Assembly: GCA_965226885.1 (NCBI GenBank)
Contig: CBDDEL010000015.1
Coordinates: 320,001 to 384,000, forward strand
DNA length: 64,000 nt
Source of the DNA: Opitutales bacterium
GTDB lineage: Bacteria; Verrucomicrobiota; Verrucomicrobiia; Opitutales; UBA2987
Direction: 5' to 3'
Translations under genes and position numbers: made by a program
Part shown: positions 1-62,732 of the stretch, one piece after another
Position numbering within the stretch: position 1 is the first letter of the stretch
Layout of the letters: each line of letters begins with the position of its first letter
Notes under the pieces: generated by a model
Told to the model about the DNA's origin: nothing
What the model saw: only the letters and a program-made list of their open reading frames with translations
The model's database searches: none

Positions 1-445
1 ACAGGTAGGTTGAGCGATGCAACCCAAAATACTGACAGGCCCGACGCAGCGAGCACGACCCTTGGGCCAATACATGCTTCACCGCTTCCTTTTTCTGCTT
101 CGGGCCTACCATTTTTTTGCGTTCACCTCCTTGAGCACACGGTTCTCCAGCATCTGCTCGGCTACTATCTTCTTAAGCTGCGTGTTTTCGCGCTCCAGCT
201 CCTTCAGCCGCTTGGCGTCACGTAGCTCCATGCGGCCATACTTTTTACGCCAACGATGATAGCTTTGAGGACTAATATTGTGGGACCGACAGACATCCTG
301 GATGCCTTTGCCTGCGTCTACTTCGCGCAGCGCAGTATCGTTATGATCTGTTCAGGGGTGTATCTTTTTTGCTTCATAGGTCTTTCCGGTAATTTCTCCA
401 GAAAGACTCTCACTGGCAATGGTCATGTTTTTGGCGGTCACATCA
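1..445 (-). mobile_element. IS3-family element, left part (runs off window start); orfA frameshifted
   Basis: Reverse complement closely matches 8167-8610. IRL TGATGTGACCGCCAAAAAC starts at 445 on the - strand. Extra CGCAG (326-335 tandem) breaks orfA. Confidence 0.9.
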
Positions 446-497
446 AATCAGCTCGCTATAAGTATATTTAAGTAACTTATTATTAACCACATAACGA

Positions 498-1064
498 TTA
501 TTTCAAGCTAATTTTCTTATGATGAATTGGGAAATATGGGCTATTATCGCTTACTTTGCACTCGGTGATATTAATGGACAATTGTTTGATGGCACTGATT
601 TTGTCGCGGAAAGAGGCGGCATCCTCGTATCGTTCACTAGCCACCGCCTGTTCCATTTTGTCCTCCAATTGCCGGATGCGGTCGTTGATCAAGTTTTCGG
701 CTATGGCTTTGGCGGGGATCTTGCCCAGATGCTGGGAGCCGGATTGCAGTTTTTCCACAATCGGCCTCAGGAGGCCAGCAAAGGTTTCATAGCACTCGGG
801 GCAACCGAATCGGCCAAATTTTTCAAAATCCTTTTGGGTAAACCCGCAGGCTTCACAGCGGACGACCTGCGTCAAGTCAAGTGAGTGAATTTGCGGGGAT
901 TTTGCGCCCAGCTTGAGCACACCAATTCCTTGGGCGGATACGGATTCCACTTCCTCGGCATGTTCCTGGCAAAGGCATATTTTGGTCACTTTCCCCCCCT
1001 TGACGAAGGATAAAAATACCGAGGCCGGATTTCCGCATTTGGAACATTTAGGCTCCTTGTTCAT
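498..1064 (-). CDS. mcsA: McsA-like UvrB/UvrC-motif zinc-binding protein
   Basis: CxxC motifs (CSKC, CQEH, CEAC, CPECY), 'GRFGCPECYETF', C-terminal UVR motif 'AVASERYEDAASFRDKI'. Start taken at MNKEPKC. No mcsB follows; the IS3 sits there. Confidence 0.8.
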   Translation of the reverse strand: MNKEPKCSKCGNPASVFLSFVKGGKVTKICLCQEHAEEVESVSAQGIGVLKLGAKSPQIHSLDLTQVVRCEACGFTQKDFEKFGRFGCPECYETFAGLLRPIVEKLQSGSQHLGKIPAKAIAENLINDRIRQLEDKMEQAVASERYEDAASFRDKISAIKQLSINITECKVSDNSPYFPIHHKKISLK

Positions 1065-1535
1065 TATTATTAATATGACGCAATTTTTGCTCAATGACAA
1101 TAGCGTTGTTGGCAAAAATCACAATTTGTAGTATTTATTCCCTTGCTTGTTCATACGATCGATGGATTTCGCCTCACCGCTCGTTACTGCCGACAGTTTT
1201 CCTTCTCGCTCGCATCCCAGCTTCAAAATCCAGAGGAAAACAGTCTTCCCCGGTTGGATAACAAAGCCCAAAGCCATTTTATTTCAAAAAAACTGAAAGG
1301 TAATAGAAAACCTGCCGACTATAATAGCCTACGCCATTTTTATATGGACATGATTTATTTTCCCCGAAAGGGGTTTTGGGGTAAAAACATAGTTAGAGGC
1401 TGTCCCAAAAATATAAAGATTTTATAGTCAACTGGATGACGTTGATAAAAAGAGCCGGAAAGAGCAAGTTTTTGCTCGATCCGGCCAAAAAAGGGTTCTA
1501 TAATTGAGTTAGCGAAAATCAATATAGCCCTTTCT

Positions 1536-3021
1536 ATGAAAAATATAGCCATCCAATGCCTCCTGCGTCCAGCTTTAACTGTGGTCGACCGGTGCCTCGA
1601 TTACGATAACTTCCGCGCCACCATTGATCGAATCGATCGGCTGCTGATCGACTCGGAGGTGGAATCGCAGGCCATTGAGCTGGCCTTGGAGGGGTGGCCG
1701 CCAATGGGTCTAAAGGCCCGGCGGCAGCGGGCCAGTTTTGCCATCAAGGCACTCACTGCGCATGGATACGCTGGGCCGTCTGCTCGGAGGGATTTCGTTT
1801 CGGCATTTGTCGCGGGCTCTGGGCAGCAGCGATCTGTTGGCCGACTTTTGCCGTGTCCGGCAGATCGATGGCATCAGGGGCATCTCCAAAAGCACCCTGG
1901 AGGGGGCCTCGAAGTTTTTCAGCGAAGAGCAGTTGAGGGCCTTGCACCGGACCTTGACTGAGGTGGTGGGCGATGCCCTTCTGGCCCGGCAGGTGGGATT
2001 GGACAAGCCGATTGACACCACCATTTGCCTGATCGACGGCACCTGTTTGGAGGCTAACATTCATTGGCCGACGGACTGGGTATTACTCAAGGATGTAGCC
2101 GGCACGTTGCTCAAAGCGATCCGGCTGATCCGCGAGAAGGCCGGTTTGCGCCATCGCATGCCGATCGAACCGGAGCCCTTGGCTCGGCAGATGAATCGGC
2201 TGTGCATACAGATGACCCACAGCCGGCGGCGAAAGGACAGCGCGCGGCAGCGCAAGGGTATCTTGAGGCAGATGAAAAAGCTGCTCAAACGGATCGGGGA
2301 GCATGCCCGCAGTCACCGGGAATTATTGCAAGCCTGCTGGGAGCAAAGCGATTACAGCGAAAAACAGGTCCAACAGATCCTCGCCCGGATGGAGCGCATG
2401 AGCGAGCAAATCCCGGTGGTCATCAAACAGGCGCACGAGCGGATCATTGGCGGCCGCCAGGTGAAAAACGCAGAGAAAGTCTTGAGTGTTTACGAACTCG
2501 ATGGGCAGGTGATTGTGCGAGGTAAAGCGGGCCAAGAGGTCGAGTTCGGCAACACCCTGTTTTTGGGAGAAAGCGTTGAAGGGTACCTGCTGGACTGGAA
2601 ACTCTACGGCAGCCGAACTCCAAGCGAAAATGAACAAATGCAAGAGAGTTTGCAAAGACAGAACCGCTTCAACCTGGAAGAACCCATAGCGGCCATGTGC
2701 GCGGACCGGGGATTTGCCTCCCAGCGGGCCCGCCGGCAGTTAGCCCAGGAGGGAATCTATGACGCGCTCTGTCCACGCGATCCGAAGCAGTTGAAAAAAC
2801 GGATGGAGGAACCACTGTTCAGACAATTGCAAAAGCGCCGGGCCAGCACCGAAGGGCGGATCGGGGTATTGAAGAATCGCTGGCAGGCCGGGCGGTTGCG
2901 CAGCAAAGGCTTTGCCAACCGCTCGATCAGCGTAGCCTGGTCGGTACTCTCGCACAACCTATGGAAAGTAGCCAAGATGCTGGCCCAGCAAGACGAACTA
3001 AAAACCAAAGCGGCGGCCTAG
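1536..3021 (+). pseudogene. IS5/ISNCY-like transposase, frameshifted
   Basis: Motifs DGTCLEANIHWPTD, RGKAGQEVEFG, ADRGF, EGRIG. CACT duplication at 1750-1757 (absent in copy 2) splits ORFs 1536 and 1738. Confidence 0.85.
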
Positions 3022-13379: not shown

Positions 13380-13784
13380 TTGGTTAATGTAATTTTATTC
13401 GGGAAATAATTCCCTTTGATTCGGCTGATTTACTCCTTTTCGGAATGGAAACTATAAATGGCAAATTCGTAAACAGGCCTGTAAAGGTTAAATCTATTTA
13501 CCACTATCTATAGATTGTCCCGAGGCCCTGATTAGGAGAAAATCAAGGTCGGCATTTAATTATTTCGTTAGTTATATGTTGATTCTTTTTACAAAATAAA
13601 CCAAACAAAATATCAAGATATACCGGCTAGTCCGGCTAGTATTTCAATCACGTTTCTTAATAACCAATGTGATCTGATATTGAAGGTATTTTAAAATAAA
13701 ATCTTAAAGTTCAGGAATGGAGTAACCGTTTGAAGCAGTTGGATATTATTCCCATAATACTTCATATCTTTTTCTCTAAACGCA

Positions 13785-21307: not shown

Positions 21308-24172
21308 TTACCGGTGCCGGTAAGCAACGGAAACAGAACGAAGCACCGGGGTATTGGCTCCGTTGGGCGAGATAAGGCTCGCTTTAAACTGGAAGTGCCG
21401 GGCGTCCCTGGCCAGACTCTTCAGCAGAGAGTGGCGCTCGCGATAGTAACTCACGGGTCCCTCCGGTCCTGTCCAAGTAGTATTCTTGAGCGCTTCGAGG
21501 GTAGGAGCGGCGCGCACTTGAAATTCGATGCCGGTGGCAAAGGGAGTGTCCCCCTCCCAATCCAATGATTCGAAGTCGGCGGCGCGTTCCGCATCCAAGA
21601 CCCTGGAGATGTAATCGAACCGCTCGCCGCGGTGAGCGATGTTGCCGATGTCGTTTACCATCAACCAATGAGGCCCTAGGCCGGGCAGAAGTGTGCGGTG
21701 TTCCGGAGAAAAGCCATCCGGCCCTCCCCAATAGAGAAAGGAATCGTTGCGATGGCTCCCCTCCAGGCGGTGGTTGGAGAAGAGGATGTCCGGGAATCCA
21801 TCGTAATTGTAGTCCGCTACGGTGGCGCCGGAGGCTGAATTGGTCGGCATCATGGTAACCCGCTCGGGGTCGAACCCCTGATCGCTATTCCAGTAGATGC
21901 TGGAGGGGTGGGAACGCGTTTCCCCTGCGTGGTAACTGGTCAGAACCAGGTCCAGGTGGCCGTCGCCGTTCAAGTCCGCCACGGCGGCGTCTTCATTGCC
22001 AACGGTAGGCAGGACCAGCCTCCGTGACTTAGAAAAACCGTCCGCGCTTCCCCAGTAGATAAAGGTGCCCGCTTTATAGTCGCCATCCGCGGTTGTCAGG
22101 TTGCACGAAATGATATCGAGATGACCATCCCGATTGAGATCGGCGACCTCTGTGGCCACCGTCAGTGCTGCCGGGAGTATGGTTTTTCGCACGTTGTCAA
22201 ATCCGTTTGGACCGTTCCAGTAGATCACCAACTCGCTGTGGACGTTCGGAAAAACGATATCCAGATAACCGTCGCCGTTGAAGTCGCCAAACGATTGGCA
22301 GCGTGTTCCGTCGGCTTGGAAAATGAATTGATTGTTGCCCGCAAACCCCATCGGGCCGCCCCAGTGCAGGCTGGCCACCCCGCCCGCCGCGAAATCGCTG
22401 ATGGAAATATCGAGGTAGCCGTCACGATTGTAATCCGCGATAAGGCCGCTGAAGGACATGTTAGACGAGACCAAGGTTTTGTCGCCCGTCGAGTACCCCT
22501 GTTTCGAGCCCCAGTAAACCGCACTCTCGGCCCCCCCCTGGAACAGGTCGACATATCCGTCGTTGTCAATATCCGAGGTGGCGTGTCCTTCGGCCGGAGA
22601 ACCGTAGGGGTGCAAGAGGTCCGAACGCTGATCGACGGAGTAATCCCCCGTTTCATTGCCCCAGTAGATGTAGGCGGGTATCGGCGCGCCGGCGGAGCCG
22701 TCGATCGCGTTGATGAAGACAAGATCCTTCTTTCCGTCCTTGTCAAAGTCGCCCGCGGCGATACTCGCGGCGCCTACAGTCTGCAGATCCAGCCGGCGGC
22801 CGCTGTCAAGCCCATCCGACCCTCCCCAGTAAACGTAGGATGTCGTGCGATGCGACCGCGCGTCGTTATCGTTGGCGAAGATGAGGTCCTGGTGGCCGTC
22901 GTTGTTGATGTCGTCGATCAGACAATCTTGGGGATTGAGGGTCGGAAAGGTGCTGCGCCGGTGAGCCTGGAAGCCCTGCGGGCTGTTCCAGTAGACATAG
23001 GAGCCGGCTCCAGCAGACGCGGCGGCGTGGCCGGTCAGTTGCGGACCATTGGCAAATGCCAGGTCGATGAGACCGTCTCCATTGAGGTCGCCCGCCGCCA
23101 CTCCTGCCGCCGCCAGCGTCGGCAATTCGGTTCGGCGTGCCGCCTCGTAACCTTCTCTGGAACCCCAGTATATGAAGGAAGAGATGGCGTCCGTGACAGA
23201 GTCCGTGTCCAGTTCGCGTTTCTCCTCCGGGTCACGTTTGAGGGGGCGGTAACGGTTGGCCACCACGATATCGGGGAAGCGGTCGCCGTCGAGGTCTGCG
23301 AGGGCGAGGGCGGCACTCCGCTCGCCAGGGAGAGTCGTCCGCCGCTTTTCGGAATATTTCTCCTGCCCTTTTCCCTGCCCTTTTCCCCAATAAATCATTA
23401 CGTTGCCCGATTGCTGTCCATCGCCTTGATTCGAAAAAACGATGTCGAGCGCACCGTCCGTGTTCAGGTCGGCTATTTTAACGTCGGTAGCGGCCTGGGT
23501 AGGGAGGTGGGAGAGTTTCTTGGTTGAGAAACCTTCTTTTGAGCCCCAGTAGATGGTGGAGTAGTTCCCCGGTTTCATTGACGTGTCCTTCGTATTCGCG
23601 CTGTTGGCAAAGACCAGATCGAGAAATCCGTCCGCGTTGAGATCCTCGATAGCTGCTCCGGTGGCTCCGTTAGTCGGAAGTTCCGCCCGACGCTCCTCGT
23701 CGAATCCATCCTGGCTTCCCCAGTAAATGTAGGAGTTGGTGTTCGACTTTACCCCGTTGTTTCCGTTGACGACAACGAGGTCTTCGAACCCGTCGCGATT
23801 GAGATCGGCGATGGCCTGCGCCTGGCCTCCATCGCTCGGCAATCGCGTCCGTTGGCCTACTTCGAAACCGTCAACTCCCCAGTAGATGAAGAGGTCGATT
23901 TGGGTGTTGTTGTCATGGGTATTGGCAAATACGATGTCGAGAAATCCGTCATCATTCAGGTCCGACTGGCTAACCAGGCGGATCTCCCCCGCTGCGGTCA
24001 CATAGGTGTTGGCGCCGCCGTCTTGGAGGGTCCCTTCGCTGAATTCGAGGAAGGTCGAAACGGTCCAGGTTTCGGTCGCATAGACCCCTGAGGTCGCATA
24101 GACCCCTGACACAGCGGAGAGGAAAATTCCGAGTAGAATTGGGGAAACAATCGCCGTTCGTCGCAAGGTCAC
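21308..24172 (-). CDS. Large secreted FG-GAP/VCBS repeat protein
   Basis: Signal peptide; many DLNxDGxxD Ca-binding repeats each followed by (I/V)YWG. Confidence 0.9.
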   Translation of the reverse strand: MTLRRTAIVSPILLGIFLSAVSGVYATSGVYATETWTVSTFLEFSEGTLQDGGANTYVTAAGEIRLVSQSDLNDDGFLDIVFANTHDNNTQIDLFIYWGVDGFEVGQRTRLPSDGGQAQAIADLNRDGFEDLVVVNGNNGVKSNTNSYIYWGSQDGFDEERRAELPTNGATGAAIEDLNADGFLDLVFANSANTKDTSMKPGNYSTIYWGSKEGFSTKKLSHLPTQAATDVKIADLNTDGALDIVFSNQGDGQQSGNVMIYWGKGQGKGQEKYSEKRRTTLPGERSAALALADLDGDRFPDIVVANRYRPLKRDPEEKRELDTDSVTDAISSFIYWGSREGYEAARRTELPTLAAAGVAAGDLNGDGLIDLAFANGPQLTGHAAASAGAGSYVYWNSPQGFQAHRRSTFPTLNPQDCLIDDINNDGHQDLIFANDNDARSHRTTSYVYWGGSDGLDSGRRLDLQTVGAASIAAGDFDKDGKKDLVFINAIDGSAGAPIPAYIYWGNETGDYSVDQRSDLLHPYGSPAEGHATSDIDNDGYVDLFQGGAESAVYWGSKQGYSTGDKTLVSSNMSFSGLIADYNRDGYLDISISDFAAGGVASLHWGGPMGFAGNNQFIFQADGTRCQSFGDFNGDGYLDIVFPNVHSELVIYWNGPNGFDNVRKTILPAALTVATEVADLNRDGHLDIISCNLTTADGDYKAGTFIYWGSADGFSKSRRLVLPTVGNEDAAVADLNGDGHLDLVLTSYHAGETRSHPSSIYWNSDQGFDPERVTMMPTNSASGATVADYNYDGFPDILFSNHRLEGSHRNDSFLYWGGPDGFSPEHRTLLPGLGPHWLMVNDIGNIAHRGERFDYISRVLDAERAADFESLDWEGDTPFATGIEFQVRAAPTLEALKNTTWTGPEGPVSYYRERHSLLKSLARDARHFQFKASLISPNGANTPVLRSVSVAYRHR

Positions 24173-24423
24173 TATACCCCTTGATTGTTGGATTCTGTGT
24201 TGGCATAGTCAATCTTACAAAGCTGGATAGATATTATGTCCACTGAAAGATCCTTGTCCTGCAGGGCCGCATCCCCCATATAAAAGATCGTTCCTGACTT
24301 AACAACGTTCAGCCATTCCATCATCATGAAATCGCGGAGAGCCGGGTGAAATCGCGGAGAGCCGGGGAGGATTTCAGTAACCGGCTGGCAAGTTGCCTGT
24401 CTCCGCACTCCATAACAAAATAA

Positions 24424-28535: not shown

Positions 28536-30338
28536 GAGGCTGTCCCAAAAGGGTGATTTTTGCGAGGGCTTTTGATAGGCGCTCATTTTAGAGGTATTTG
28601 CATTTGGGAGAGTATCAACTTTGCTCTCCTATGACGTTAGGATACTGGTTTTGGGGTCCGGTTGCCTGGTTTTCTTTGTATGAGCCGACAGTAAGGCTGT
28701 GAAAAAGTATTGTCCTTGCTTTTCCGCTCTCTAGGCCGCCGCTTTGGTTTTTAGTTCGTCTTGCTGGGCCAGCATCTTGGCTACTTTCCATAGGTTGTGC
28801 GAGAGTACCGACCAGGCTACGCTGATCGAGCGGTTGGCAAAGCCTTTGCTGCGCAACCGCCCGGCCTGCCAGCGATTCTTCAATACCCCGATCCGCCCTT
28901 CGGTGCTGGCCCGGCGCTTTTGCAATTGTCTGAACAGTGGTTCCTCCCTCCGTTTTTTCAACTGCTTCGGATCGCGTGGACAGAGCGCGTCGTAGATTCC
29001 CTCCTGGGCTAACTGCCGGCGGGCCCGCTGGGAGGCAAATCCCCGGTCCGCGCACATGGCCGCTATGGGTTCTTCCAGGTTGAAGCGGTTCTGTCTTTGC
29101 AAACTCTCTTGCATTTGTTCATTTTCGCTTGGAGTTCGGCTGCCGTAGAGTTTCCAGTCCAGCAGGTACCCTTCAACGCTTTCTCCCAAAAACAGGGTGT
29201 TGCCGAACTCGACCTCTTGGCCCGCTTTACCTCGCACAATCACCTGCCCATCGAGTTCGTAAACACTCAAGACTTTCTCTGCGTTTTTCACCTGGCGGCC
29301 GCCAATGATCCGCTCGTGCGCCTGTTTGATGACCACCGGGATTTGCTCGCTCATGCGCTCCATCCGGGCGAGGATCTGTTGGACCTGTTTTTCGCTGTAA
29401 TCGCTTTGCTCCCAGCAGGCTTGCAATAATTCCCGGTGACTGCGGGCATGCTCCCCGATCCGTTTGAGCAGCTTTTTCATCTGCCTCAAGATACCCTTGC
29501 GCTGCCGCGCGCTGTCCTTTCGCCGCCGGCTGTGGGTCATCTGTATGCACAGCCGATTCATCTGCCGAGCCAAGGGCTCCGGTTCGATCGGCATGCGATG
29601 GCGCAAACCGGCCTTCTCGCGGATCAGCCGGATCGCTTTGAGCAACGTGCCGGCTACATCCTTGAGTAATACCCAGTCCGTCGGCCAATGAATGTTAGCC
29701 TCTAAACAGGTGTCGTCGATCAGGCAAATGGTGGTGTCAATCGGCTTGTCCAATCCCACCTGCCGGGCCAGAAGGGCATCGCCCACCACCTCAGTCAAGG
29801 TCCGGTGCAAGGCCCTCAACTGCTCTTCGCTGAAAAACTTCGAGGCCCGCTCCAGGGTGCTTTTGGAGATGCCCCTGATGCCATCGATCTGCCGGACACG
29901 GCAAAAGTCGGCCAACAGATCGCTGCTGCCCAGAGCCCGCGACAAATGCCGAAACGAAATCCCTCCGAGCAGACGGCCCAGCGTATCCATGCGCAGTGCC
30001 TTGATGGCAAAACTGGCCCGCTGCCGCCGGGCCTTTAGACCCATTGGCGGCCACCCCTCCAAGGCCAGCTCAATGGCCTGCGATTCCACCTCCGAGTCGA
30101 TCAATGGTGGCGCGGAAGTTATCGTAATCGAGGCACCGGTCGACCACAGTTAAAGCTGGACGCAGGAGGCATTGGATGGCTATATTTTTCATAGACATAG
30201 AGAGGGCTATATTGATTTTCGCTAACTCAATTATAGAACCCTTTTTTGGCCGGATCGAGCAAAAACTTGCTCTTTCCGGCTCTTTTTATCAACGTCATCC
30301 AGTTGACTATAAAATCTTTATATTTTTGGGACAGCCTC
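28536..30338 (-). mobile_element. IS5/ISNCY-like insertion sequence copy 2 (1803 bp)
   Basis: Same IRs as copy 1; flanked by TAACTA direct repeats (28530-28535 and 30339-30344). Confidence 0.92.
28731..30192 (-). pseudogene. IS5/ISNCY-like transposase with 20-bp deletion near 30100
   Basis: Relative to copy 1, lacks 20 bp between TGATCGA repeats (copy-1 positions 1625 and 1645), disconnecting the ATG at 30192. Confidence 0.85.
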
Positions 30339-35070: not shown

Positions 35071-36301
35071 TTATTTTTTGGTCTCGAAAATCAGGCGCAA
35101 AATCTTGTCATCGTCTGGACGCAATCTGGCTCGTCCATCGGTATTGCTGGTCAAAACGTAGAGGTGGCCGTCCGGTCCAACGGCCACGTCGCGCAGGCGT
35201 CCGTAGATTCCGTTGTGCGGGTCGCGAGCAAACCAACGTTCAATTTTCACCACTTGATAGTCGTCCTCAAATTGGATGCGAAGGAGCGCTTCACTTCGCA
35301 AAGTGGCAACGAAGAGATCGCCCCGATAGAAGTTGATTCCTGGGGGAGGCACCGAAAAATCGCCCCACCAGATGATGGGATCCCGGTATGCAGCGATGTG
35401 AGGCGCGCCGACGACATTGGCCCAACCGTAGTTGGCTCCTTTCTCAACGATATTGATCTCGTCGCGCCCAATGACTCCAGGCCATTCACCGGATGGGCCG
35501 TGCTCGGAGTTAAACATAAGGCCGGTTTCGGGGTCCCACGCCAGGCCTTGGACTACGCGGTATCCATAGGAAAATACGGGGGAGCCAGGGAAGGGGTTAT
35601 CCTTCGGAATCTGGCCGTCCGGAGTGATGCGAAGGATTTTCCCAGCCAATGATTCGAGATCTTGGGAGAGCGGCGCCTGCCAGAGATCGCCCGTCCCGAT
35701 GTAAAGCATCCTATCGGGACCAAACGCAATCCTGCCACCGATATGAATGTCGTGGCCGGGCAAGTTGTCCAATATGACGCGGTTCAATACTCCGGTGTCA
35801 CCTTGATGGCGGAGACGAATGACACGGTTGACCATCTGGTCATCTTTTCGATAACTGTACATAGCGTAGACAAACGGGTGCGGGTGCTCTTGGGTGCGGG
35901 TGCTCTTCAAATTGGGGATGCAGGGCCAGTCCCATGAGCCCGGCATCAACGACATGGGCAACCTCCTCGATATTGATGTAGAGTTGCGGCTGGTTTTGCC
36001 CATGAGGAATTCGCTGAATGCGACCAGGTCGTTCCGAAACAAGAGCATCGCTGTTTGGCAGGAAAACCAGAGACCAGGGAATCTGTAGGTTCTCTACCCA
36101 AGTCTCGACCCTGACGCCCTCCAATTCGAGAAGAAAAACGTCGGTCACGCGTTGCGGCACTTCGCCGCGGATGGGTTGGCCATAAGTGATGCTGGAAAGG
36201 CAAAAGGCAACCAGCAGCGACAAAACTTGTTGGAACTGTGAAAAGCGAAACCAATGCCCTTTGATCGGCGGGTTTGCAGTTCTACATCTGAAGTACATCA
36301 C
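35071..36301 (-). pseudogene. PQQ-dependent sugar (glucose/sorbosone) dehydrogenase, frameshifted
   Basis: IPWSLVFLP, GLMGLALHP, HIGGRIAFGPD, SEHGP, DEIN, GRLRDV. 16-bp duplication at 35876-35907. Confidence 0.88.
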
Positions 36302-43510: not shown

Positions 43511-45091
43511 CCCGGATATTTCATGAAGGGTAAAGTTTGGCTCGTTATTGCTATTGGAGATGGATTTCTTTGTATTTTGAGCAGATCGTCTTGATTTTTA
43601 GGTCTTGATTTTTAGGTGTTTTTCAGGGTGTAGAGACACTGCCCCCTTTCCCCCATTGGTTCGGTAGTGCCGGGGGCAGCACCAATGCACCCTTTAGGTT
43701 GGCACCAATCGGCGGGCCGCATGGTTGAAAAGACTGGCCCAAGGATAACTCTCACTTAGGTGAAAGTGAATCGTTCGGGTGTTGCGCACGATGACCGCTC
43801 CGATCTTGATTAATTTGAGCCGCAGGGTGTGGCATTGGGCCCGCGCCCACTTCGTCCCTTTTAAGGCTAACCGGCGCATGGCTTCCATCAAGGTGTAGGC
43901 CAGCGCCGACAAGAGCAATCGCCACTGATTGGCCCACCATTGATGGGCGCTGGTGCGCTCGCTGAACAATTGCATCTGTTCCTTGATTCGGTTCTCCATT
44001 TCACCGCGGCCACAGTATACCTTGTCGTAAAGCTCCTGGGGATCGCCCGGCAGGTTCGTCACCACGAAGCGCGGGTTGGACCCCTGTGCGGTGTGTTCGG
44101 CTTTATGGATGACCAACCGCAGCCATCGCCACGAATCGGCAGCATAGACGAAGTCCTGGAATAACCGTTGTTTTTTACCCCTTAGTTCGAACCATTCTTT
44201 GGCCTGCTTTTGCAACTGCTGGGCGTCTTGCTGCAAGCGTGCATTGCGAGCCATCCCCACGATGTAACTAACTTCGTTGCGGTCGCACCAAGAGAGTATC
44301 CGGTCTCGACAAAATCCACTGTCGGCGCGCCAAATAATCCGCGTACGGGGCCAGCTTTGGCGAATCCGTTTAACCAGCAATTTGAGGATGGCCCCGGCAT
44401 GCTTGCTGGCATCGATCTTGCTCGGCCGCAGGTAGGCCACCAGCAGCTGATCACCGCAAAAAACATATAGCGGCAGAAAACAGTAATGATCATAATAACC
44501 GTGGAAAAAACGTCCCTCCTGGAGCCCGTGCACCGGATTGTCGGTGGCGTCAAAGTCCAGGATGATCTCTTCGGGTTCCTCGGCAAAGGAGCCCATGAAC
44601 TGTTCGACCAACAGCTCGTTTACCGCAAAGGCCGCCCGCCGATCCTGCCCGTTTTCAAAACGACACAAAGTCGGCGCGCTGGCCAACGTTTCAATGCGCC
44701 CCGTTACCGTTTGCAACAATGGATCGTGGCGCAGGGTATCAAAGTCGTTCAAATCCTCATAGCCCGCCACCAGCCCGTAAACGCGCTGCCGCAGCATCCC
44801 CAATACCTCATGGCGTACTTTGCCCTTCTGCCGTTTGTCCACTAACTGTCGGGCCGCTCGTTCGGTCAAGCCCAACTGCCGATCCACTTCCCGGATCAAA
44901 AGCAGTCCGGCATCCGAAGTAACCTCTCCGCCCTTGAAATCAACCCGCACACGGCGGCCTTTTACCCTTGTCAACTGTAGCTTTAATTGTTTACCTTTTG
45001 TCATCGCTGATATTGCTTTAATTATTGATCTATCCTGCTGTATATCAGCAGTTAAGCATATCAACGATACTTTTTTTACGAAATATCCGGG
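43511..45091 (-). mobile_element. IS1380-family insertion sequence copy 2 (1581 bp)
   Basis: Same IRs; CTAA target duplication; protein identical to copy 1; extra 14-bp duplication at 43588-43615. Confidence 0.95.
43694..45004 (-). CDS. IS1380-family transposase (intact)
   Basis: Translation identical to 3109-4419. Confidence 0.95.
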   Translation of the reverse strand: MTKGKQLKLQLTRVKGRRVRVDFKGGEVTSDAGLLLIREVDRQLGLTERAARQLVDKRQKGKVRHEVLGMLRQRVYGLVAGYEDLNDFDTLRHDPLLQTVTGRIETLASAPTLCRFENGQDRRAAFAVNELLVEQFMGSFAEEPEEIILDFDATDNPVHGLQEGRFFHGYYDHYCFLPLYVFCGDQLLVAYLRPSKIDASKHAGAILKLLVKRIRQSWPRTRIIWRADSGFCRDRILSWCDRNEVSYIVGMARNARLQQDAQQLQKQAKEWFELRGKKQRLFQDFVYAADSWRWLRLVIHKAEHTAQGSNPRFVVTNLPGDPQELYDKVYCGRGEMENRIKEQMQLFSERTSAHQWWANQWRLLLSALAYTLMEAMRRLALKGTKWARAQCHTLRLKLIKIGAVIVRNTRTIHFHLSESYPWASLFNHAARRLVPT

Positions 45092-46127
45092 CTAACTGCA
45101 CCGACAGCTTGGCGGCAATCGCCACCTCCAGCGCCTGGCGCAGGTCGTGCCCCGATAACCACAGCTTGCTGCCTGTTTCCACAGTCGCCAGGAAGGAGCG
45201 GATGGAACCGGTAAGGTACCTGAACTGGCTCCACTGGTAGGGGGTGTAGGGCCTCTCGACCCTTACCCTTTCGCCCTTGGCGTCGAAGCCCTGGTAAATC
45301 TCGGACGGCACGCCCCACTTGCAGCGGACGAGTGAATCCCGGCTCCAGACATCCACACCGCGCTCTCGAGTAGGCGTTCCGAATACGGTACACTCCCGCC
45401 CATTGGAGAGGCGGAAGCGGGCATTGATGATGAGCCCCTCGTCGATGTCTCTGGCCACCACTTCCTCGAACCAGTAGGGCGCATCCCGGTGCGTGCCCCA
45501 CGTGATGATCTCCTCGATCTCGGCATCCGTCATTAGGCGCAGCATGGAAACATCCTGGCAGCCGCCACCGGAGATCTCGGCTCCCCACCCGATTATGCTG
45601 GCCCCAATGAGCTCTCCATAATCTCCTGCCCATAGCCAGCCGGCCGCCTCCTGATTCTCATTCAACGCTCGCATGAGGTTCCCTCCGGCGAAAACCACCC
45701 CAAGCCTTTCACAAGTATCCACCATCTCGTCGGCGTCGGACAGTTTCGCCGCAATCGGTTTGTCTGTAGACACTCCCTTCACGCCCACCTCGGCGCAGGC
45801 GATCACCGCCTCCTTGTAGTATTTCGTAGGAGTCACCACCGCCACGATGTCGGTCACCACGTCCTTCAAGAGGGCATTTACGTCCTCGTATAAAGCCTTC
45901 ACGCAAAACTTCTCTCCGACCGCCTTGCGTCTCTCGGTCCGACCGCCTTGCGTCTCTCGGGATTGTACTCTGCGATAGCCACGATCTCACAATCCGGGTA
46001 GGTTGAGTACGCGTCGACGTAGATCTGCCCCATGAGGCCGCAGCCGACAATCGCCACACGGTGTTTGACTTCGCTCATGATTGAGCCTCCTTTCTTTTTT
46101 CCAAACGAGAGTTTATCATAAGCTTTC

Positions 46128-49136: not shown

Positions 49137-50890
49137 TCACGAAGTCATTTTCTTGATCGGCCAGGGTTGCACACCGCAGCGTTGGGCCCAACGCTCGTAA
49201 ATTTCCGCGAGCTCGGAAACTTTATCGGGATATTGCTTTGCCAGGTCATGCAATTCTGTGCGGTCGGCTTCCAAATCGTAAAGTTCCCACTTCTGATGAT
49301 TGGTAATGGTGGTCCAGTCATCCCATTGGCCGGCATTCTTTTGTTGTCTTATGTGATTTGCTTTTTCGACCAGCTTCCATTTGCCTTTCCGCACGGCGCG
49401 GTCGCCGGTAAGCTCCCAGCAAAGGGATTCATGCCCCGGGCGCTGCTTTCCCTGGAAAATGGACATCAGGCTTTTCCCTTCGAGCGGGATAATTTCCCGA
49501 TTAATATAGGTCTTCGGATACTCGATTCCCGCAACGTCAATACAGGTGGCCAAAATGTCCATGACATGACCAACTTGGTGGGTAATGCCAATGTGGTTTC
49601 TAATGACGGCCAGCCAATGAGAAATCAGAGGAGTCGCAATACCGCCTTCATGCATCCAGGTTATGTAAAGCCGGAAAGGGGTGTTACTTGCGTTGGCCCA
49701 GGACAAGCCGTAGGACATATAGGAATTGACGTTGCCGGGCGGGTCCTGGTCCTTCCCGATGTTTATCCCGGTGGGACCGCCCCAAGAGGCTGCGCCATTG
49801 TCCGAGAGGAAAAGTACGAGGGTATTTTTTTCCGCGTCGATATCTGCCAGTTTGTCGAGAATTTTTCCGATGCCTTGATCCATCCGGTCGATTTGGGCTG
49901 CGTAAATGGCCATTTTCATGTCCATCAATTCCTTATTTTTTTCCTCTTCCAAAGACCTGGCATTGGCATCCCGAGGGGTTAGTTCCCAATTTCTGTCGAT
50001 AATGCCCTGGTCAATCATGCGTTCATAGCGTTCTTGGCGCAGTCTTGGCGCAGTCGATCCCAACCTTTCATGTATTTTCCTCTATACCGGGCAATATCCT
50101 CCGGCAATGCCTGCAGAGGAACATGGGGGGTCGTATAAGAAACATAGAGGAAAAAGGGTTGTGTTTTAGCGTCATGATCATCGAGGAATTTGACGGCATA
50201 ATCGCTAATCGCATCGGTCATATAAAACCCCTCTGCATCCGGCTCGAACCTCTCACCATCCAAGGCTACTCTCCTTATCCCGTCTTCGGGAAAGTAGGGC
50301 GCTTTCATGCCGGATTTGACATCAAAATAGTTGGCGCCACCGCTGATCAATCCGAAATACCTGTCAAATCCGCGATCTACAGGCCAATGCGGGCGCGTTT
50401 CCCCCACATGCCATTTCCCGGACATCATGGTGCGATATCCGCCTAATTTAAGAGCTTCCGCGATGGTGACGCAGCGATCATTCAAATGCCCCAGATAAGC
50501 GGGATATCCTTTCCCCGCCAGTTGGGCCGGTATCTGTGGATCATGAACCATAAATCCCAGTCCCGTCTGATGTGCATACAAACCGGTTAAAAGAGACGCG
50601 CGAGTAGGACAGCATACCGCCCCATTGTAAAATTGCGTGAAACGAAGCCCCTCACCAGCCAAACGATCTATGTTGGGAGTGCGGATTTCACCCCCGTAAC
50701 AACCCACATCGGAAAATCCCATATCATCAGCCATGACCACTACAATATTGGGGCGATTCGCGGAGATTTCCCTTTCGCTTTTTGTTTTTTTCAGAAAAAA
50801 ACCCTTGGCCGGACTGGATACCGCACTTGAGGCCAGGATCCCATGGCAAAGTGAACTCAGAAACTGTCGTCGGCTGTAGTTTCGATTCAT
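49137..50890 (-). pseudogene. Tat-exported arylsulfatase, frameshifted
   Basis: SRRQFL, ADDMG, CCPTRASLLTG, GKWH. 11-bp duplication at 50032-50053 splits the two ORFs. Confidence 0.9.
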
Positions 50891-59239: not shown

Positions 59240-59351
59240 ATAGGTCCTTTCTATTTATTTCTAATAAATATTTTCGTGTAGTCTAAAATTTGATCAATGC
59301 CAATAATTTGATCAATGCCAATAAAACCCTTAACCAATAAAACCCTTAAAT

Positions 59352-59514: not shown

Positions 59515-59609
59515 CTTTTTCTTTAATTTACATATATCAAGCAGGTTCTTTTTCTTTCAAGCAGGTTCTTTTTCTTTAATTTACATATCTACATATATCA
59601 AGCAGGTTC
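59515..59609. repeat. Nested tandem duplications (33, 20 and 8 bp units)
   Basis: CTTTTTCTTTAATTTACATAT x2; TCAAGCAGGTTC x3. Confidence 0.8.
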
Positions 59610-59622
59610 CAAGAGATATTAA

Positions 59623-61950
59623 TTAGAACGTATAGGCCACAGAGAATTTGACGTGGCGGGGGTCCTCCGCGTGGCCCAGGGCCGCGAAGATTGAGGAGAT
59701 GGTACCCACAACATCGGTAAAATTATTGATATTTACTTGCAAGCGCAATTTACCGTTTTTGGTTACGTAAGAAACGAAAGCATCAGCTCTCGTATACCCT
59801 TCCGTGACAAAGGAGCTTCTAGTATCGCCGAAGCGGTCGGCGAGATTTACCACCGCCACTCCGGTTGTCAACCCTCTGAGACCTCCCTCCAAAAAGGTGT
59901 ATTTGGCAACACCCGACCAACGGAAGCCGTTTTGACCATTGCGCTGACGCCGGGTTTTGTCCTGGGTCTCTTCGTTGAAGCCTAAAGTTTCCTGGTCGGT
60001 CAAGGCCACCAGAAAAGTGAAATTGTCATTGAACCTCCAGGCCAGATCTATTTCCCACCCATCAGAGGTCGTGACGCCCTCCTGAACACTCTCGTCCAGC
60101 CCGGTCTCCTCATTGAAGATCCGGATCGGAGCATTAAGAACATCAAGTTTAAACCAGTTCGCGGTCATCAAAAGGGAGTTATCGAAAAACTGCAATTTGA
60201 CTCCAACCTCATTAATTTTGCCTTCCAGATTTTTAGCAGGAACGCCGGGTACAAGTTCGCCGAATCGACTCTCAAACGTTTCCGAACGGTTATAGTAGAT
60301 GGACACTTTATCATCGATTACCTGGCCCACGAAACCGAACTTAGACACCCAGTTGTTGGATTTGTTGCCACTGCTGGAGGCACCGGTCAAGAGTTCTGTG
60401 CTCCCGCCAGAATTACCAAAGTCATAGCGGACGCCGCCCGAGAAGACTAGACGGCCCTCGGCAAGAGTGATGTTATCCTGGACCCCAAAATTAAACCGAG
60501 TATTCCCATCACTCTCAGAGATGCTATGCGGCCCGCCGGGGGGAAAATCATAATAGTCGTTACTCTCTCCGAGAGGAAATGAATTCTGGGTGATGATACT
60601 GTAGGCATTGTCCAGATTCAGGTTTGCGTTGAGAGCAGAGCCGCCGAATTCCTCCTTGATCGTCACGTCGGTCCATGAGCTTTTGGAACGACCCTGGGTG
60701 AACTGGCTGTAAATCAGGAGGTTATGGGAAAGACCGCCAGTCTCAAAACGACCCGTGAGGTCCGTAAAGAGGCCCCAGGTTTTGTTGATGCTCGGCCCGC
60801 TTACCCGGGCAACAGCGTTGGACATCTTGATATCCGCATAGGCGGTCCCAAAATCCGCGAATTCCGGTTCCCCCGGGGTTGACCGGGTTCCGGTTGTTCC
60901 GAACACGCTTCCGTCGGCTCTCAGAAAGGAATAGCCGATAGCAATAATGTCGGCGGTGGGGTCGTTGTTTTCGCTCTCAATGTATCGCGTTACAAGGCGA
61001 AAATTCCAATCGCCGATCAATCCTGAAAATCGATTGGCAAAACCAAATTCGGCATAAAATTCATCGCGTTGTTCGTTATTGGGAACCGGAACAGTCGAAA
61101 TCGAACTTCCAGTAATATCTGTGGAAGGGCGGCCCGCACCGTCCCAAAACACACCCGGAGTTTCATGGCCGGTTTTAATATGTTTTTTAAACCCCCGTCC
61201 CCACATTCGGGTATTTCCATTTTCTGATTCGTACTGAAGCGTCGCATAAAAATTCTCCTTTTCATCAGCGGCGCCAGCGCCCTGGGTCACCTCGCCATCA
61301 CGAACGACGCCGATAAACCGATAGGTAAACTTCCCTTCCTTGTCGATGGGACCGCCATGATCGACCGAACCCTGAACGGTGTCGCCGATACTCGAATAGA
61401 GGAATTTTAGCGTGGTCTGCCGTTCTTTGGGGGGAGCTTTGAATATCCGGTTTACGAGGCCGCCGAAGGAATGGTCCCCGTAGAGTGTGCCGACCGGCCC
61501 TTTGATGATTTCATACCGTTCTATGAATTCCGTTTCCTGTTCGGTCTCTGGTCCGGGCAGGCCGTCCAGGAATGAGGAGTTGGAGCCACGCGTCGGAAAC
61601 CCGCGAATAAAAAATGTGCCGATGGTGACGGTGGAGGAGGGTCCTATGCCGGCGACATAGCGCAAGGCATCTTCGGAGTCAAAGGCGGCCACATCATCCA
61701 TTAACTCGTGGTTCACCGGAATGACGCTATGCGAAAGATCCAATAGATCGACGTTAAAGCGGGATCCCCCGGAGGTCACGTTGGTGCCATAACCGACTGT
61801 AGTAACTTCGGTTAGGACAAAGGGATCGAGTTCGATCATTTCTTCTTCGTCGATTTCCGTTCTCTCTGTCGTTTCCTGTCCAAAAAGGAATCCGGCGAGG
61901 AGACAATTAACAGCCAGTATCAGGCCAAGTTTCTTAAGCGATTTTTTCAT
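59623..61950 (-). CDS. TonB-dependent receptor
   Basis: Signal peptide from MKKSLKK, IELDPFVLT, plug 'IERYEIIKGPVGTLYG', terminal YTF. Confidence 0.92.
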   Translation of the reverse strand: MKKSLKKLGLILAVNCLLAGFLFGQETTERTEIDEEEMIELDPFVLTEVTTVGYGTNVTSGGSRFNVDLLDLSHSVIPVNHELMDDVAAFDSEDALRYVAGIGPSSTVTIGTFFIRGFPTRGSNSSFLDGLPGPETEQETEFIERYEIIKGPVGTLYGDHSFGGLVNRIFKAPPKERQTTLKFLYSSIGDTVQGSVDHGGPIDKEGKFTYRFIGVVRDGEVTQGAGAADEKENFYATLQYESENGNTRMWGRGFKKHIKTGHETPGVFWDGAGRPSTDITGSSISTVPVPNNEQRDEFYAEFGFANRFSGLIGDWNFRLVTRYIESENNDPTADIIAIGYSFLRADGSVFGTTGTRSTPGEPEFADFGTAYADIKMSNAVARVSGPSINKTWGLFTDLTGRFETGGLSHNLLIYSQFTQGRSKSSWTDVTIKEEFGGSALNANLNLDNAYSIITQNSFPLGESNDYYDFPPGGPHSISESDGNTRFNFGVQDNITLAEGRLVFSGGVRYDFGNSGGSTELLTGASSSGNKSNNWVSKFGFVGQVIDDKVSIYYNRSETFESRFGELVPGVPAKNLEGKINEVGVKLQFFDNSLLMTANWFKLDVLNAPIRIFNEETGLDESVQEGVTTSDGWEIDLAWRFNDNFTFLVALTDQETLGFNEETQDKTRRQRNGQNGFRWSGVAKYTFLEGGLRGLTTGVAVVNLADRFGDTRSSFVTEGYTRADAFVSYVTKNGKLRLQVNINNFTDVVGTISSIFAALGHAEDPRHVKFSVAYTF

Positions 61951-62332
61951 GAGTTTCTTCGTTTGGTTGTTAAATAAATATTTTAACTTAACTGGGGAAT
62001 GGGTTGGTCTGGGGAATGGGTTGGTCAACATTAATCTTATTCTAATATCGGATACAATGAGATACCTTTCCCATAGTAGGGAAGGAGTGAACCAAAGGGA
62101 AAATGGATTGCCAAAAAGAAATATCTGGTTAAATTTCTTTACCATCCTGGAGAAATTGGAGAAATAACCTTGGATTATTGGAAGAGAAAATCGCCTTCTG
62201 CTTATTAACCCATATTTTCCATTTCATCTTAAGAATATATGCTTGAAATAATCGATATGCTTGAAATAATCGCTATGTGATTAATAATAAGTTAGTTAAA
62301 TATACTTATATCGAGCAAATTCTTAAAATCCT

Positions 62333-62630
62333 ATGGGTGACGCAAAAAAGGGCAGTTTTCGGGTTCAATTTAACCGCCGAATCAAGCTGGAGCTCCACGG
62401 TGCGAAGGTTACCAGTGATGCAGGAATGTTACTCTACCGGGAACTCGATGAGGCTTTCGGACTGACGGCGATAGGAAGCGAAAATGTGGTGGAGGAGCGC
62501 ACGGGCAAAAATATCCAGCACGGCAGAGCCGCTCTGCTTCGGCAGTCTGTCTTCAGTCGCCTGGCAACCTACAAGACACGAACGATGCGGAACGCCTGCG
62601 GTTTGATCCCGTCATGAGGCAAATTGTCGA
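62333..62630 (+). pseudogene. IS1380-family transposase N-terminal remnant (different element)
   Basis: VTSDAG, LLRQSVFSRLA, then DTNDAERLRFDP after a frameshift; truncated. Confidence 0.8.
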
Positions 62631-62732
62631 GGCGGGGGTGTGAAAATTTCATAATTTCGAGATTATTGACATTTAAGTCATTTTCGAGATTATTGACATT
62701 TAAGTCATTTTATTGCTATTTCATAAAGTCCA

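Follow-up and report, generated by a model that had tools for sequence, protein, structure and literature searches.

Exact head-to-tail duplications of 9 bp or more occur far above chance in a 64,000-nt stretch of DNA from a marine Opitutales bacterium (hereafter the window) and throughout its whole genome (G000; 5,479,947 bp in 17 contigs), and the excess is confined to G000 and one sister species, G004. At about 80% of the junctions a single C, specific to one strand and set among A and T, stands at -5 from both the start and the end of the duplicated unit, and this two-ended motif is the site signature of a type IA topoisomerase. We consider it probable that the duplications are real, recent mutations left by a 'nick, extend, reseal' error of the sole type IA topoisomerase in the genome. 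These two wild genomes, with their duplication spectrum, point to how new tandem repeats arise.

Tandem duplications in the window and genome

An earlier note on the window had listed 23 duplication sites. The duplications themselves are confirmed, with an exact head-to-tail copy of the claimed period and position at 22 of the 23; the site given as 326 begins at 325, and the one described as nested, at 59515, holds a perfect 20-bp duplication at 59537 that sits inside a larger imperfect repeat. Reading frames were assessed by comparing the stop-to-stop open frame before and after one unit was collapsed (arrows below). The sites and the genes that they affect are as follows.

325..334: 5-bp duplication (GCGCA twice), 1 bp microhomology, IS3 orfA-like region; collapse 81 -> 103 aa
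1750..1757, plus strand: 4-bp duplication (CACT twice), DDE transposase gene, C five bases upstream; collapse 435 -> 522 aa
6656..6669: 7-bp duplication breaking a minus-strand gene, external C/G motif absent; collapse 167 -> 280 aa
9615..9634: 10-bp duplication, both external motif bases present; collapse shortens the frame, 109 -> 93 aa
9959..9970, plus strand: 6-bp duplication, C five bases upstream
13623..13640: 9-bp duplication, non-coding
21308-24172, minus strand: FG-GAP repeat protein gene, carrying the duplications at 23362 and 24074
23362..23385: 12-bp in-frame duplication, 2 bp microhomology; the 966-aa frame remains open
24074..24109, minus strand: 18-bp in-frame duplication, G at +5 downstream and also at the fifth base of the unit, a two-ended minus-strand motif
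24327..24366, plus strand: 20-bp duplication, C at -5 upstream and also at the fifth-last base of the unit
30190..30201, minus strand: 6-bp duplication adjoining an IS end, two-ended minus-strand motif
35071-36048 and 35840-36301, minus strand: parts of a glucose/sorbosone dehydrogenase gene
35876..35907, plus strand: 16-bp duplication splitting that gene, C at -5 upstream and also at the fifth-last base of the unit; collapse 340 -> 409 aa
42154..42165: 6-bp in-frame duplication, 3-keto-disaccharide hydrolase gene
About 43505-45102: 1.6-kb IS element, with its transposase at 43694-45064, minus strand
43588..43615: 14-bp duplication private to one copy of this IS
45915..45960, minus strand: 23-bp duplication splitting a Gfo/Idh/MocA oxidoreductase gene; collapse 313 -> 363 aa
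46208..46215: 4-bp duplication, ABC permease gene; collapse alone gives no frame gain
49137-50063 and 50015-50890, minus strand: parts of a sulfatase gene
50032..50053: 11-bp duplication splitting that gene; collapse 314 -> 598 aa
53295..53314: 10-bp duplication; collapse yields a minus-strand frame of 247 aa
59287..59322: 18-bp duplication, non-coding, 3' of a TonB-dependent receptor gene
59318..59349, plus strand: 16-bp duplication beginning within the preceding one, upstream flank ...TCAATG, C at -5 and also at the fifth-last base of the unit
59537..59576: perfect 20-bp duplication within the larger imperfect repeat
61992..62025: 17-bp duplication, 5' end of a TonB-dependent receptor frame
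62146-62732: divergent intergenic region, containing the next three
62148..62165, plus strand: 9-bp duplication
62237..62272, minus strand: 18-bp duplication, two-ended minus-strand motif
62655..62708: 27-bp duplication

Deleting one unit had been said to remove the frameshift at every frameshifting site. The effect was clear at five of nine (1750, 6656, 35876, 45915 and 50032), weak at two (325 and 53295) and unseen at two (9615 and 46208).

Against 30 third-order Markov simulations, the window holds 17 duplications of period at least 9 where about 0.23 are expected, and 26 of period 6 where 13.6 are expected. Periods 4 (211 versus 207) and 5 (52 versus 54) match the simulations, so the 4-5 bp cases at 326, 1750 and 46208 are not separable from chance by frequency. 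Genome-wide, G000 contains 730 primitive perfect duplications of period at least 9, spread over all 17 contigs, and 701 of these have exactly two copies; duplication lengths form a smooth run from about 6 to 93 bp. Junction microhomology among the 701 is mostly 0-3 bp, as had been reported, and lies at random expectation (0 bp, 397 versus 394 expected; 1 bp, 168 versus 197; 2 bp, 80 versus 74; 3 bp, 28 versus 25). The data thus support the proposal of an unusual process in this lineage that generates duplications without microhomology, and that process breaks genes too. Slippage was considered as a source, and the model fails.

Independent contigs and selection

We compared the window with Logan contigs from three studies (sets X3, X5 and X6) and with X1, a seawater relative that is about 89% identical. 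Over 10 of the window's duplication sites, X3 and X5 contigs, from different studies, showed 0-1 differences and no gaps; both contain the duplications at 45915..45960 and 59287..59322, and an X3 contig covers 62655..62708 without gaps. A strain of about 99.7% identity lacks at least one window duplication. The 11-bp copy at 50032 is missing from strain X6, and X1 lacks both this copy and the 4-bp copy at 46208. The 14 bp of 43588 are missing from high-depth X3, X5 and X6 contigs, which represent other copies of the 1.6-kb IS. Across 51640-53862, which spans the 53295 site, an X6 contig has 10 gap letters whose positions are not itemised.

Selection has left its mark on the distribution. Out-of-frame duplications cut an open frame in 5 of 397 cases, compared with 163 of 397 control deletions; non-coding DNA is enriched for duplications (130 versus 32), and multiples of three are in excess (304 of the 701 two-copy duplications). 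The suggestion that the process drives gene inactivation holds in part: about 62 of the 397 out-of-frame duplications (at least 9 bp) rejoin a long frame on collapse, against 13 in the control, while IS-type repeats, in 801 intervals, make up 34% of the genome.

Restriction to one clade

Measured as two-copy duplications of period at least 10 per Mb, density reaches 105.7 in G000 and 60.1 in G004 (41 in 682 kb). Other relatives are far lower, at 10.5 (G001), 9.5 (G002), 10 (G008) and 0 (G005), with 15 in a mix from the order. The earlier note had staked its case on a frequency above that of relatives, and this is what we find for most of them, with the sister G004 sharing the trait.

A two-ended, strand-specific junction motif

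The junctions were analysed in the 298 G000 duplications with zero microhomology and period at least 10. Five bases upstream of the unit, C occurs in 47%, and five bases downstream G occurs in 48%, each against a background of 26%; at least one of these external bases is present in 238 of 298, compared with 45% by chance. The upstream C and downstream G are mutually exclusive (odds ratio 0.30, p=5e-7), and therefore each event was made on one strand. The unit itself carries a second signal, on the strand of the external one: an upstream C goes with a C at the fifth-last base of the unit (odds ratio 1.77, p=0.02), and a downstream G with a G at its fifth base (odds ratio 2.49, p=2e-4). Orientation could be assigned to 192 events; their flank has T(-8) 0.48, T(-7) 0.45, C(-5), A(-4) 0.50, A(-3) 0.55 and T(-2) 0.51, and 52% of units have C fifth from last.

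Between periods of 10 and 100 bp the motif fraction stays at about 80% in each class, and at 4-5 bp it is what chance predicts. It is equal in unique DNA (177/224) and IS DNA (61/74), and the flanking 8-mers are diverse (254 distinct of 284). For G004, the external motif alone was not significant (16/28 versus 45% by chance, p=0.14), and the internal C, at 7/11, is suggestive.

The events also have a preferred location. Duplications per kb of G000 spacer number 0.56 between divergent, 0.44 between tandem and 0.29 between convergent genes, and the difference persists when counted per CWWW site (p=2e-5) and when repeats are left out (p=0.002). There was no bias between coding and template strands (55 versus 59 oriented events). 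A weak lean towards the lagging strand was seen (79 versus 55), in a genome whose GC skew is scrambled.

The type IA topoisomerase of G000 and G004

Each genome has one type IA topoisomerase gene. The enzyme matches topoisomerase III of E. coli (E 5e-86) better than its topoisomerase I (4e-35). G000 and G004 alone have Arg, at residue 325, three residues before the catalytic Tyr; in the remaining 28 genomes of the Opitutales this residue is L, M, V or A. None of 131 diverse representatives has a charged residue at this position, and all 178 other sequences in a 180-sequence alignment have a hydrophobic one; it is the sole well-occupied column in which the residue shared by G000 and G004 is absent from all the others. 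The Arg substitution may be the cause of the duplication spectrum. With two sister genomes, the link between the two is one evolutionary event, and any other change on that branch fits equally.

Several other observations count against a topoisomerase origin, among them the non-significant external motif of G004, the lack of a bias between coding and template strands, and the closer match of the enzyme to topoisomerase III. The C lies five bases from the junction, compared with four from the cut for E. coli topoisomerase I, so the register is off by one unless the enzyme differs. G000 and G004 are also both rich in IS-type repeats (34% of G000, 22.5% of the G004 sample), and IS-rich G008 is low, in a sample of 200 kb only.

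Proposed mechanism and alternatives

We infer the following order of steps. The topoisomerase would nick one strand of melted, negatively supercoiled DNA where it prefers to cut, at a lone C among A and T, and remain attached to the 5' end. Before resealing, a polymerase could then add about 6 to 90 bases to the free 3' end, displacing the old strand, after which the enzyme would join the extended 3' end to the 5' end that it still holds, most easily where the new end again presents a C in the same register. The product would be a perfect head-to-tail copy, with no need for a pre-existing repeat. The exchange of a hydrophobic residue for Arg at -3 from the catalytic Tyr may slow or loosen resealing in G000 and G004, and relaxed selection in an IS-swamped genome could let some copies stay inside genes.

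It is less probable, though a serious alternative, that another enzyme or lineage-specific change produces single-strand nicks at C-W-W-W-N sites, followed by the same extension and resealing; candidates include a nuclease of the HUH/Y1 type, a relaxase-like protein and a nickase of a defence system. Any enzyme that nicks and rejoins at preferred sites and keeps the 5' end bound would account for the motif and for its restriction to one strand, the association with the clade stems from one event, and the C stands at -5 rather than the canonical -4. However, matches to Y1 (IS200/IS605) transposases do not follow the trait (2 weak matches in G000, 55 in G004, 75 in low-duplication G008, and 1 each in G001 and G002). 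HUH enzymes usually require a defined target of 4-5 bases, whereas the G000 site is degenerate, a single C in an A/T-rich patch like the sites described for type IA enzymes, and the bias towards divergent spacers suits an enzyme that senses supercoils.

Errors of Okazaki-fragment or flap processing without DNA polymerase I, with a rad27- or polA-like spectrum, are improbable. No family A polymerase domain was found in G000-G004, and tblastn with a relative's 957-aa Pol I recovered the 5'-nuclease part only (29.5% identity); the weak lagging-strand lean points the same way. Pol I was likewise not found in low-duplication G001, G002, G019 and G039, nor in 28 of 41 genomes of the order, so loss of its polymerase cannot explain the signature. 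Loss of the 5' nuclease, which the earlier note had suggested, is contradicted by an intact, stand-alone 317-aa gene. Flap-type duplications in yeast rad27 and E. coli polA mutants are flanked by short direct repeats, whereas G000 microhomology is at chance, and the model predicts no C at a fixed distance from both ends.

We regard as quite unlikely a route in which nearby nicks on opposite strands leave 5' overhangs that are filled in and end-joined. Pooled data do show the motif at both outer flanks, and in plants such a route yields repeat-independent tandem duplications, as cited in the discussion of PMC6954433. The outer signals, however, exclude each other, and the second signal is found within the unit, on the strand of the first. 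The Ku/LigD version proposed earlier fails on this exclusion and on a search in which neither Ku nor the ATP-dependent ligase LigD was found in G000, G004 or G001.

By-products of transposases, as abortive target cuts or excision footprints, would suit the IS load of G000 and G004 but are very unlikely: the smooth range of lengths does not resemble a few fixed target-site lengths, the motif is alike in unique and IS DNA, the IS families differ (DDE types in G000, Y1 type in G004), and 200 kb of the IS-rich G008 yielded 2 duplications. An artefact of sequencing or assembly, left open earlier and compatible with G000 and G004 both being few-contig assemblies and with the unrecorded library type of the runs, is so improbable that we exclude it, because contigs from other studies carry the duplications, at least one is missing from the 99.7% strain and their distribution bears the mark of selection; the complete-genome relatives G005, G008, G019 and G039 are, moreover, all low.

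Comparison with known systems

Yeast rad27 and E. coli polA 5'-nuclease mutants accumulate small tandem duplications of a size like those of G000. They differ in their flanking direct repeats, of which G000 has none beyond chance, and G000 retains its 5' nuclease.

In decaying bacterial genomes, deletions with 1-12 nt of flanking microhomology are prominent (171/396 in the spectrum described by Danneels et al., Genome Biol Evol 2018, PMC6054270). The genome described there resembles G000 in being pseudogene-rich, of host-restricted type and devoid of Ku/LigD; in G000 IS copies, by contrast, insertions of at least 4 bp exceed deletions by 79 to 22. The deletions, unlike the duplications, do show microhomology (at least 3 bp in 18 of 29).

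An error of the type IA topoisomerase, the origin that we favour, has its closest mutational parallel in E. coli topA R168C, in which hotspots gain tandem duplications of 2-19 bp that do not depend on repeats (Bachar et al., Nucleic Acids Res 2019/2020, PMC6954433). The two systems share head-to-tail, repeat-independent duplications, hotspot clustering and substitution of a conserved type IA residue. The G000 enzyme does not carry the same allele, because it is topoisomerase III-like and its R168-equivalent stretch is unaltered. R168C is a laboratory allele, whereas G000 and G004 form a wild clade of at least two species whose topoisomerase III-like enzyme is the genome's only type IA enzyme and has changed from L/M/V/A to Arg three residues before the catalytic Tyr. 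Lengths extend to 93 bp in G000, and its motif is two-ended and strand-specific, whereas a common motif was not found according to the E. coli study's account of its duplications.

The motif itself is matched by E. coli topoisomerase I in vivo, which, in the cleavage map of Sutormin et al. (Nat Commun 2022, PMC9352719), requires a single C at a fixed distance from the cut in an A/T-rich patch and is most strongly enriched between divergent genes. Cleavage rather than mutation was mapped there, and its C lies four bases from the cut rather than five from the junction. The same work describes a G116S/M320V form, M320V being next to the catalytic Tyr, that retains its covalent complex and poisons itself; the G000 and G004 substitution likewise lies near this Tyr and may affect resealing. 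Both systems share a conserved single C that stands, within an asymmetric A/T-rich patch, a fixed number of bases 5' of the cut, and an attraction to negative supercoils that is greatest between divergent genes.

Tandem duplications in the window and across the genome

All of the duplications that the earlier note had reported in the window were present when the sequence was re-checked, the supposedly nested one at 59515 being a perfect 20-bp duplication at 59537. Chance expectation for the window, by period (the length of the copied unit), was obtained from 30 third-order Markov simulations. At periods of at least 9, 17 duplications were seen against about 0.23 expected, and at period 6 there were 26 against 13.6; at periods 4 and 5 the counts were 211 against 207 and 52 against 54, respectively. 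The excess of new duplications claimed earlier thus stands for period 6 and for periods of at least 9 but not for 4-5 bp, where observed counts match the simulated ones and the window cases are therefore inseparable from chance by count.

The window corresponds to G000:C15:320001-384000, G000 being the Opitutales genome under study (5.48 Mb on 17 contigs). Genome-wide, G000 holds 730 primitive perfect duplications of period at least 9, with some on every contig. Exactly two copies occur in 701, of which 304 have units that are multiples of three, and lengths taper smoothly from 9 to 93 bp. As had been claimed, junction microhomology is mostly 0-3 bp, and its distribution over the 701 events is close to random expectation (397, 168, 80 and 28 events with 0, 1, 2 and 3 bp, against 394, 197, 74 and 25 expected). 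The G000 duplications are de novo, head-to-tail and independent of existing repeats. Replication slippage at homopolymers, microsatellites or direct repeats was rejected as a source, the units being primitive and non-repetitive, with exactly two copies in 701 of 730.

Recovery in independent contigs

Parts of the window occur in eight public sequencing runs from five studies, and four of these runs were compared through their Logan contigs. The evidence was drawn from the covered stretches of the contigs, with the depth tables of the runs set aside, as were the small shares of X1 and X2 as a guide to habitat. Contigs from X3 and X5, which belong to different studies, cover 45792-51441 and 51640-62289 (to 62275 in X5) with 0-1 letter differences and 0-1 gaps, so that ten of the duplications are present in them; the source sample may be X3. 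In X6, which comes from a third study, one contig shows 12 letter differences over 4.2 kb and is without the 11-bp copy at 50032, and the remaining X6 contigs have 10, 7 and 24 gap letters, not itemised by site. The seawater relative X1 (about 89% identity) has neither the 46208 copy nor the one at 50032. Only one copy of an insertion sequence (IS) has the 14-bp duplication at 43588. These contigs from separate studies (X3, X5 and X6), together with the selection filtering described below, rule out the sequencing or assembly artefact that the earlier note had considered. Long-read assembly is not the cause either, since complete-genome relatives (G005, G008, G019 and G039) are low in duplications.

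Two further observations were made in these regions. A 7-bp duplication absent from the earlier note (ATCAAAC twice) lies at 55912-55925; the X6 contig spanning 54465-56320 has 7 gap letters, not itemised, and the X6 strain may be without this copy. At 43504-45103, low-depth contigs of X3, X5 and X6 join both ends through an identical 13 other letters, and the joint is also present in X1 with 13 different letters; this joint may mark an empty site or a paralogue of the locus, in either case lacking the 1.6-kb IS.

IS copies as a record of mutation

Self-comparison of G000 gave 801 repeat intervals (at least 700 bp, at least 90% identity) that add up to 1.84 Mb and make up 34% of the genome. 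Nine IS families account for 621 full-length copies, with single families reaching 228, 118 and 114, and because of this massive expansion G000 exceeds the other genomes of its genus by 1.2-2 Mb. In the window, the expansion is represented by the following intervals.

IS expansion intervals in the window
1738-3021
3049-4419
8495-9424
28731-30104
43694-45064

We used the 621 copies as a natural mutation-accumulation set, counting singleton differences. These comprised 457 substitutions, 134 insertions and 47 deletions, and 92 of the insertions were perfect tandem duplications, about one duplication per six substitutions. Among singletons of at least 4 bp, insertions outnumbered deletions by 79 to 22. 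Most deletions carry microhomology, which reaches at least 3 bp in 18 of 29. In G000, then, duplications outnumber deletions and form a large share of mutations. Separately, some copies of IS family 3 (representative G000:C11:213812-215684) have a 17-bp duplication at approximately 208-241 that is absent from 42-49 others, with several more small indels at the same spot; the duplication is inherited through transposition and the spot is a local hotspot.

Distribution among relatives

We compared lineages by two-copy duplications of period at least 10 per Mb, sampling relatives at 0.2-0.7 Mb each.

Two-copy duplications of period at least 10 in G000 and other genomes
G000 (genome under study): 579 in 5.48 Mb, 105.7 per Mb
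G004 (same genus): 41 in 682 kb, 60.1 per Mb
G001 (same genus): 6 in 569 kb, 10.5 per Mb
G002 (same genus): 3 in 315 kb, 9.5 per Mb
G008 (other Opitutales): 2 in 200 kb, 10 per Mb
G005 (other Opitutales): 0 in 200 kb, 0 per Mb
Fourteen other family or order genomes: 6 in 400 kb, 15 per Mb
Other phyla: 8 in 443 kb, 18 per Mb

The possibility that the frequency is no higher than in relatives is thus refuted for most of them (0-15 per Mb against 105.7) but not for G004 (60.1). Non-coding DNA has 47.7 duplications per 100 kb in G000, 19.3 in G004, 9.2 in G001 and none in the rest. At periods of 14-40, perfect copies outnumber those with one mismatch by 366 to 28 in G000 and 33 to 3 in G004, against 3 to 4 in G001 and 1 to 1 elsewhere. 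The duplications are young or fast-turning-over in both high genomes; fast turnover and two recent onsets would each account for the excess of perfect copies. An unusual duplication-generating process in this lineage, as the earlier note had proposed, is borne out by the window excess, the chance-level microhomology and the clade-restricted density. Among named records, the closest to G000 is a MAG assigned to Opitutales, with 80% identity at the protein level.

IS richness was found in G004 (22.5% of the sample) and in the low-duplication G008 (12.5%). Y1 (IS200/IS605) transposase matches number 55 in G004, 75 in G008, of the same family, and 2 weak ones in G000; different IS families have invaded related genomes.

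Frame effects and selection

The earlier note held that deleting one unit removes the frameshift at each coding site. Collapse, the removal of one copy, clearly lengthens the frame at 1750, 6656, 35876, 45915 and 50032; the effect is weak at 325 and 53295, and the claim fails at 9615 and 46208. By Pfam, split genes in the window include a sulfatase, a glucose/sorbosone dehydrogenase and Gfo.

Genome-wide, 397 out-of-frame G000 duplications of period at least 9 were set against control deletions. Collapse would shorten a long frame at only 5 of the 397, compared with 163 of 397 control deletions, and would rejoin one at 62, compared with 13. No frame reaches 120 codons at 130 of the duplications, against 32 in the control. 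Selection has acted on the G000 duplications.

Junction motif and genomic location

The junctions were read from 298 G000 events with zero microhomology and a period of at least 10. At the position five bases upstream 47% have C, and at the position five bases downstream 48% have G, over a background of 26%; the two signals exclude each other (odds ratio 0.30, p=5e-7). Either outer base tends to recur at the opposite end of the unit, with register and strand unchanged (odds ratios 1.77 and 2.49, respectively). In the 192 orientable events, T-T-N-C-A-A-T-N precedes the unit and C lies fifth from the unit end in 52%. Each duplication is made on one strand.

The motif fraction is approximately 80% in all length classes from 10 to 100 bp and at chance level at 4-5 bp, and it is equal in unique and IS DNA. 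In G004, the motif was found at 16 of 28 events (p=0.14), an underpowered sample. The motif strand shows no bias relative to the gene strand (55 vs 59), and its relation to GC skew is weak and unreliable because the G000 skew is scrambled. With crude longest-frame gene calls, density is 0.56 duplications per kb in divergent spacers, 0.44 in tandem spacers, 0.29 in convergent spacers and 0.08 in genes; divergent spacers also exceed convergent ones when counts are taken per candidate site (p=2e-5) and when repeats are excluded (p=0.002).

The type IA topoisomerase

Each genome has one type IA topoisomerase, and searches of five genomes revealed no topoisomerase I besides it. The G000 enzyme is nearer to E. 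coli topoisomerase III than to topoisomerase I, with a C-terminal extension of about 220 residues comprising Cys pairs and a Lys-rich tail.

Type IA topoisomerase gene of G000
G000:C16:753075-755567 (L131:1045-3537): 830-aa frame

The stretch equivalent to R168 of E. coli topoisomerase I does not vary among the five aligned genomes, which show no R168-type change. Three positions before the catalytic Tyr, G000 and G004 have Arg (Arg-325), whereas L, M, V or A occurs in the 28 other Opitutales read; among 131 diverse representatives, the position is V in 41, L in 40, A in 29, M in 14, S in 2, I in 2, and C, F and Y in 1 each. In a 180-sequence alignment, no other well-occupied column holds a residue common to G000 and G004 but absent from all 178 others. 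Arg-325 may play a causal role in the duplications, a suggestion based on one evolutionary event and a clade-level association.

A proposed mechanism for duplication and its alternatives

In the mechanism we propose, the topoisomerase would nick one strand and keep hold of the 5' end, a polymerase would lengthen the free 3' end, and the topoisomerase would then reseal onto the lengthened end, most readily where C is again in register. Such a nick-extend-reseal model accounts for the absence of microhomology, the one-strand logic, the two-ended motif and the surplus of duplications over microhomology-free deletions. We judge it an even call that this wild clade is a standing topoisomerase mutator, in which Arg beside the catalytic Tyr of the sole type IA enzyme allows a polymerase to extend the nicked strand ahead of resealing, so that both ends of every new repeat reflect the site preference of the enzyme.

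The main rival is that another nicking-joining enzyme on the same branch makes the duplications. Y1 transposases do not fit this role, and Y1/HUH transposases were rejected as the source, their matches not tracking the duplication trait. Reciprocal two-site exchange was also rejected: it predicts equal numbers of microhomology-free deletions and duplications, and such deletions are few.

No family A polymerase (Pol I) domain was found in the five genus genomes (G000-G004), and a tblastn search with a relative's 957-aa Pol I matched the nuclease part alone. The domain is also missing from 28 of 41 Opitutales genomes, complete low-duplication ones (G019 and G039) among them; only 13 of the 41 have any family A polymerase match, and 4 (G005, G007, G008 and G025) have a full-length Pol I. 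Most Opitutales have apparently dispensed with DNA polymerase I, and since the same absence is order-wide and includes low-duplication genomes, its loss cannot be the sole cause. Loss of the Pol I 5' nuclease, suggested in the earlier note, is contradicted by an intact 317-aa stand-alone 5'-3' exonuclease (G000:C8:34002-34508). In flap-processing (rad27 or polA 5'-nuclease) mutators, the 5' flap nuclease is lost and duplications are bounded by short direct repeats; a mutator of this kind was rejected, the 5' nuclease being intact and microhomology at chance. MutS and RecJ are intact.

Abortive transposase cuts, another earlier suggestion, are opposed by the smooth 9-93 bp length range, rather than a few fixed IS target-site lengths, and by a motif fraction constant across lengths. 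Ku/LigD end joining can be set aside, as searches for PF02735 and PF01068 drew no match in G000 (96% complete), G004 or G001 while controls matched.

Comparison with known systems

Several hundred natural events in G000 are enough to read a mechanism from junctions. The one-strand, two-ended register to a single C within A/T-rich sequence and the preference for promoter-side spacers, with a unique active-site-adjacent substitution, yield a concrete hypothesis for the bench; TTNCAATN is the oligonucleotide type named for mapping cuts of the Arg-325 enzyme. If the proposal is true, these duplications would be the first sequence-level evidence of tandem repeat birth from non-repetitive DNA, and the clade would be the first natural example of a mutator of this kind that shapes promoters and kills genes on an evolutionary timescale. 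No such spectrum was described for a wild bacterium in the limited literature set searched.

The IS-copy spectrum of G000 runs opposite to the deletion-dominated indel spectra described for bacterial pseudogenes (PMC6054270), and shows that bacterial genomes can decay without a deletion bias in their indels. In vivo, the site described for E. coli topoisomerase I is an asymmetric, A/T-rich patch in which a single C is needed, set a constant distance 5' of the cut (PMC9352719), a requirement that the authors suggest for the whole family (PMC9352719; PMC3467081); a model substrate of E. coli topoisomerase III has C, A, A at -4, -3, -2 (PMC13476441). The C lies five bases from the junction in G000 but four from the cut in E. 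coli topoisomerase I, and the divergent-spacer excess resembles the region of highest E. coli topoisomerase I enrichment (PMC9352719). In the same enzyme, the neighbouring M320V, together with G116S, poisons resealing (PMC9352719).

The closest parallel is E. coli topA R168C, which produces tandem duplications of 2-19 bp that do not depend on repeats and cluster in hotspots; that study describes the mechanism as unknown, and its discussion presents the de novo origin of tandem repeats from ordinary sequence as an open question (PMC6954433). De novo, repeat-independent duplications are common to both systems, and in both a conserved type IA topoisomerase residue is changed, though at different positions (PMC6954433). 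The G000 junctions, in contrast, have a two-ended, strand-specific motif, where the E. coli study reports none found (PMC6954433).
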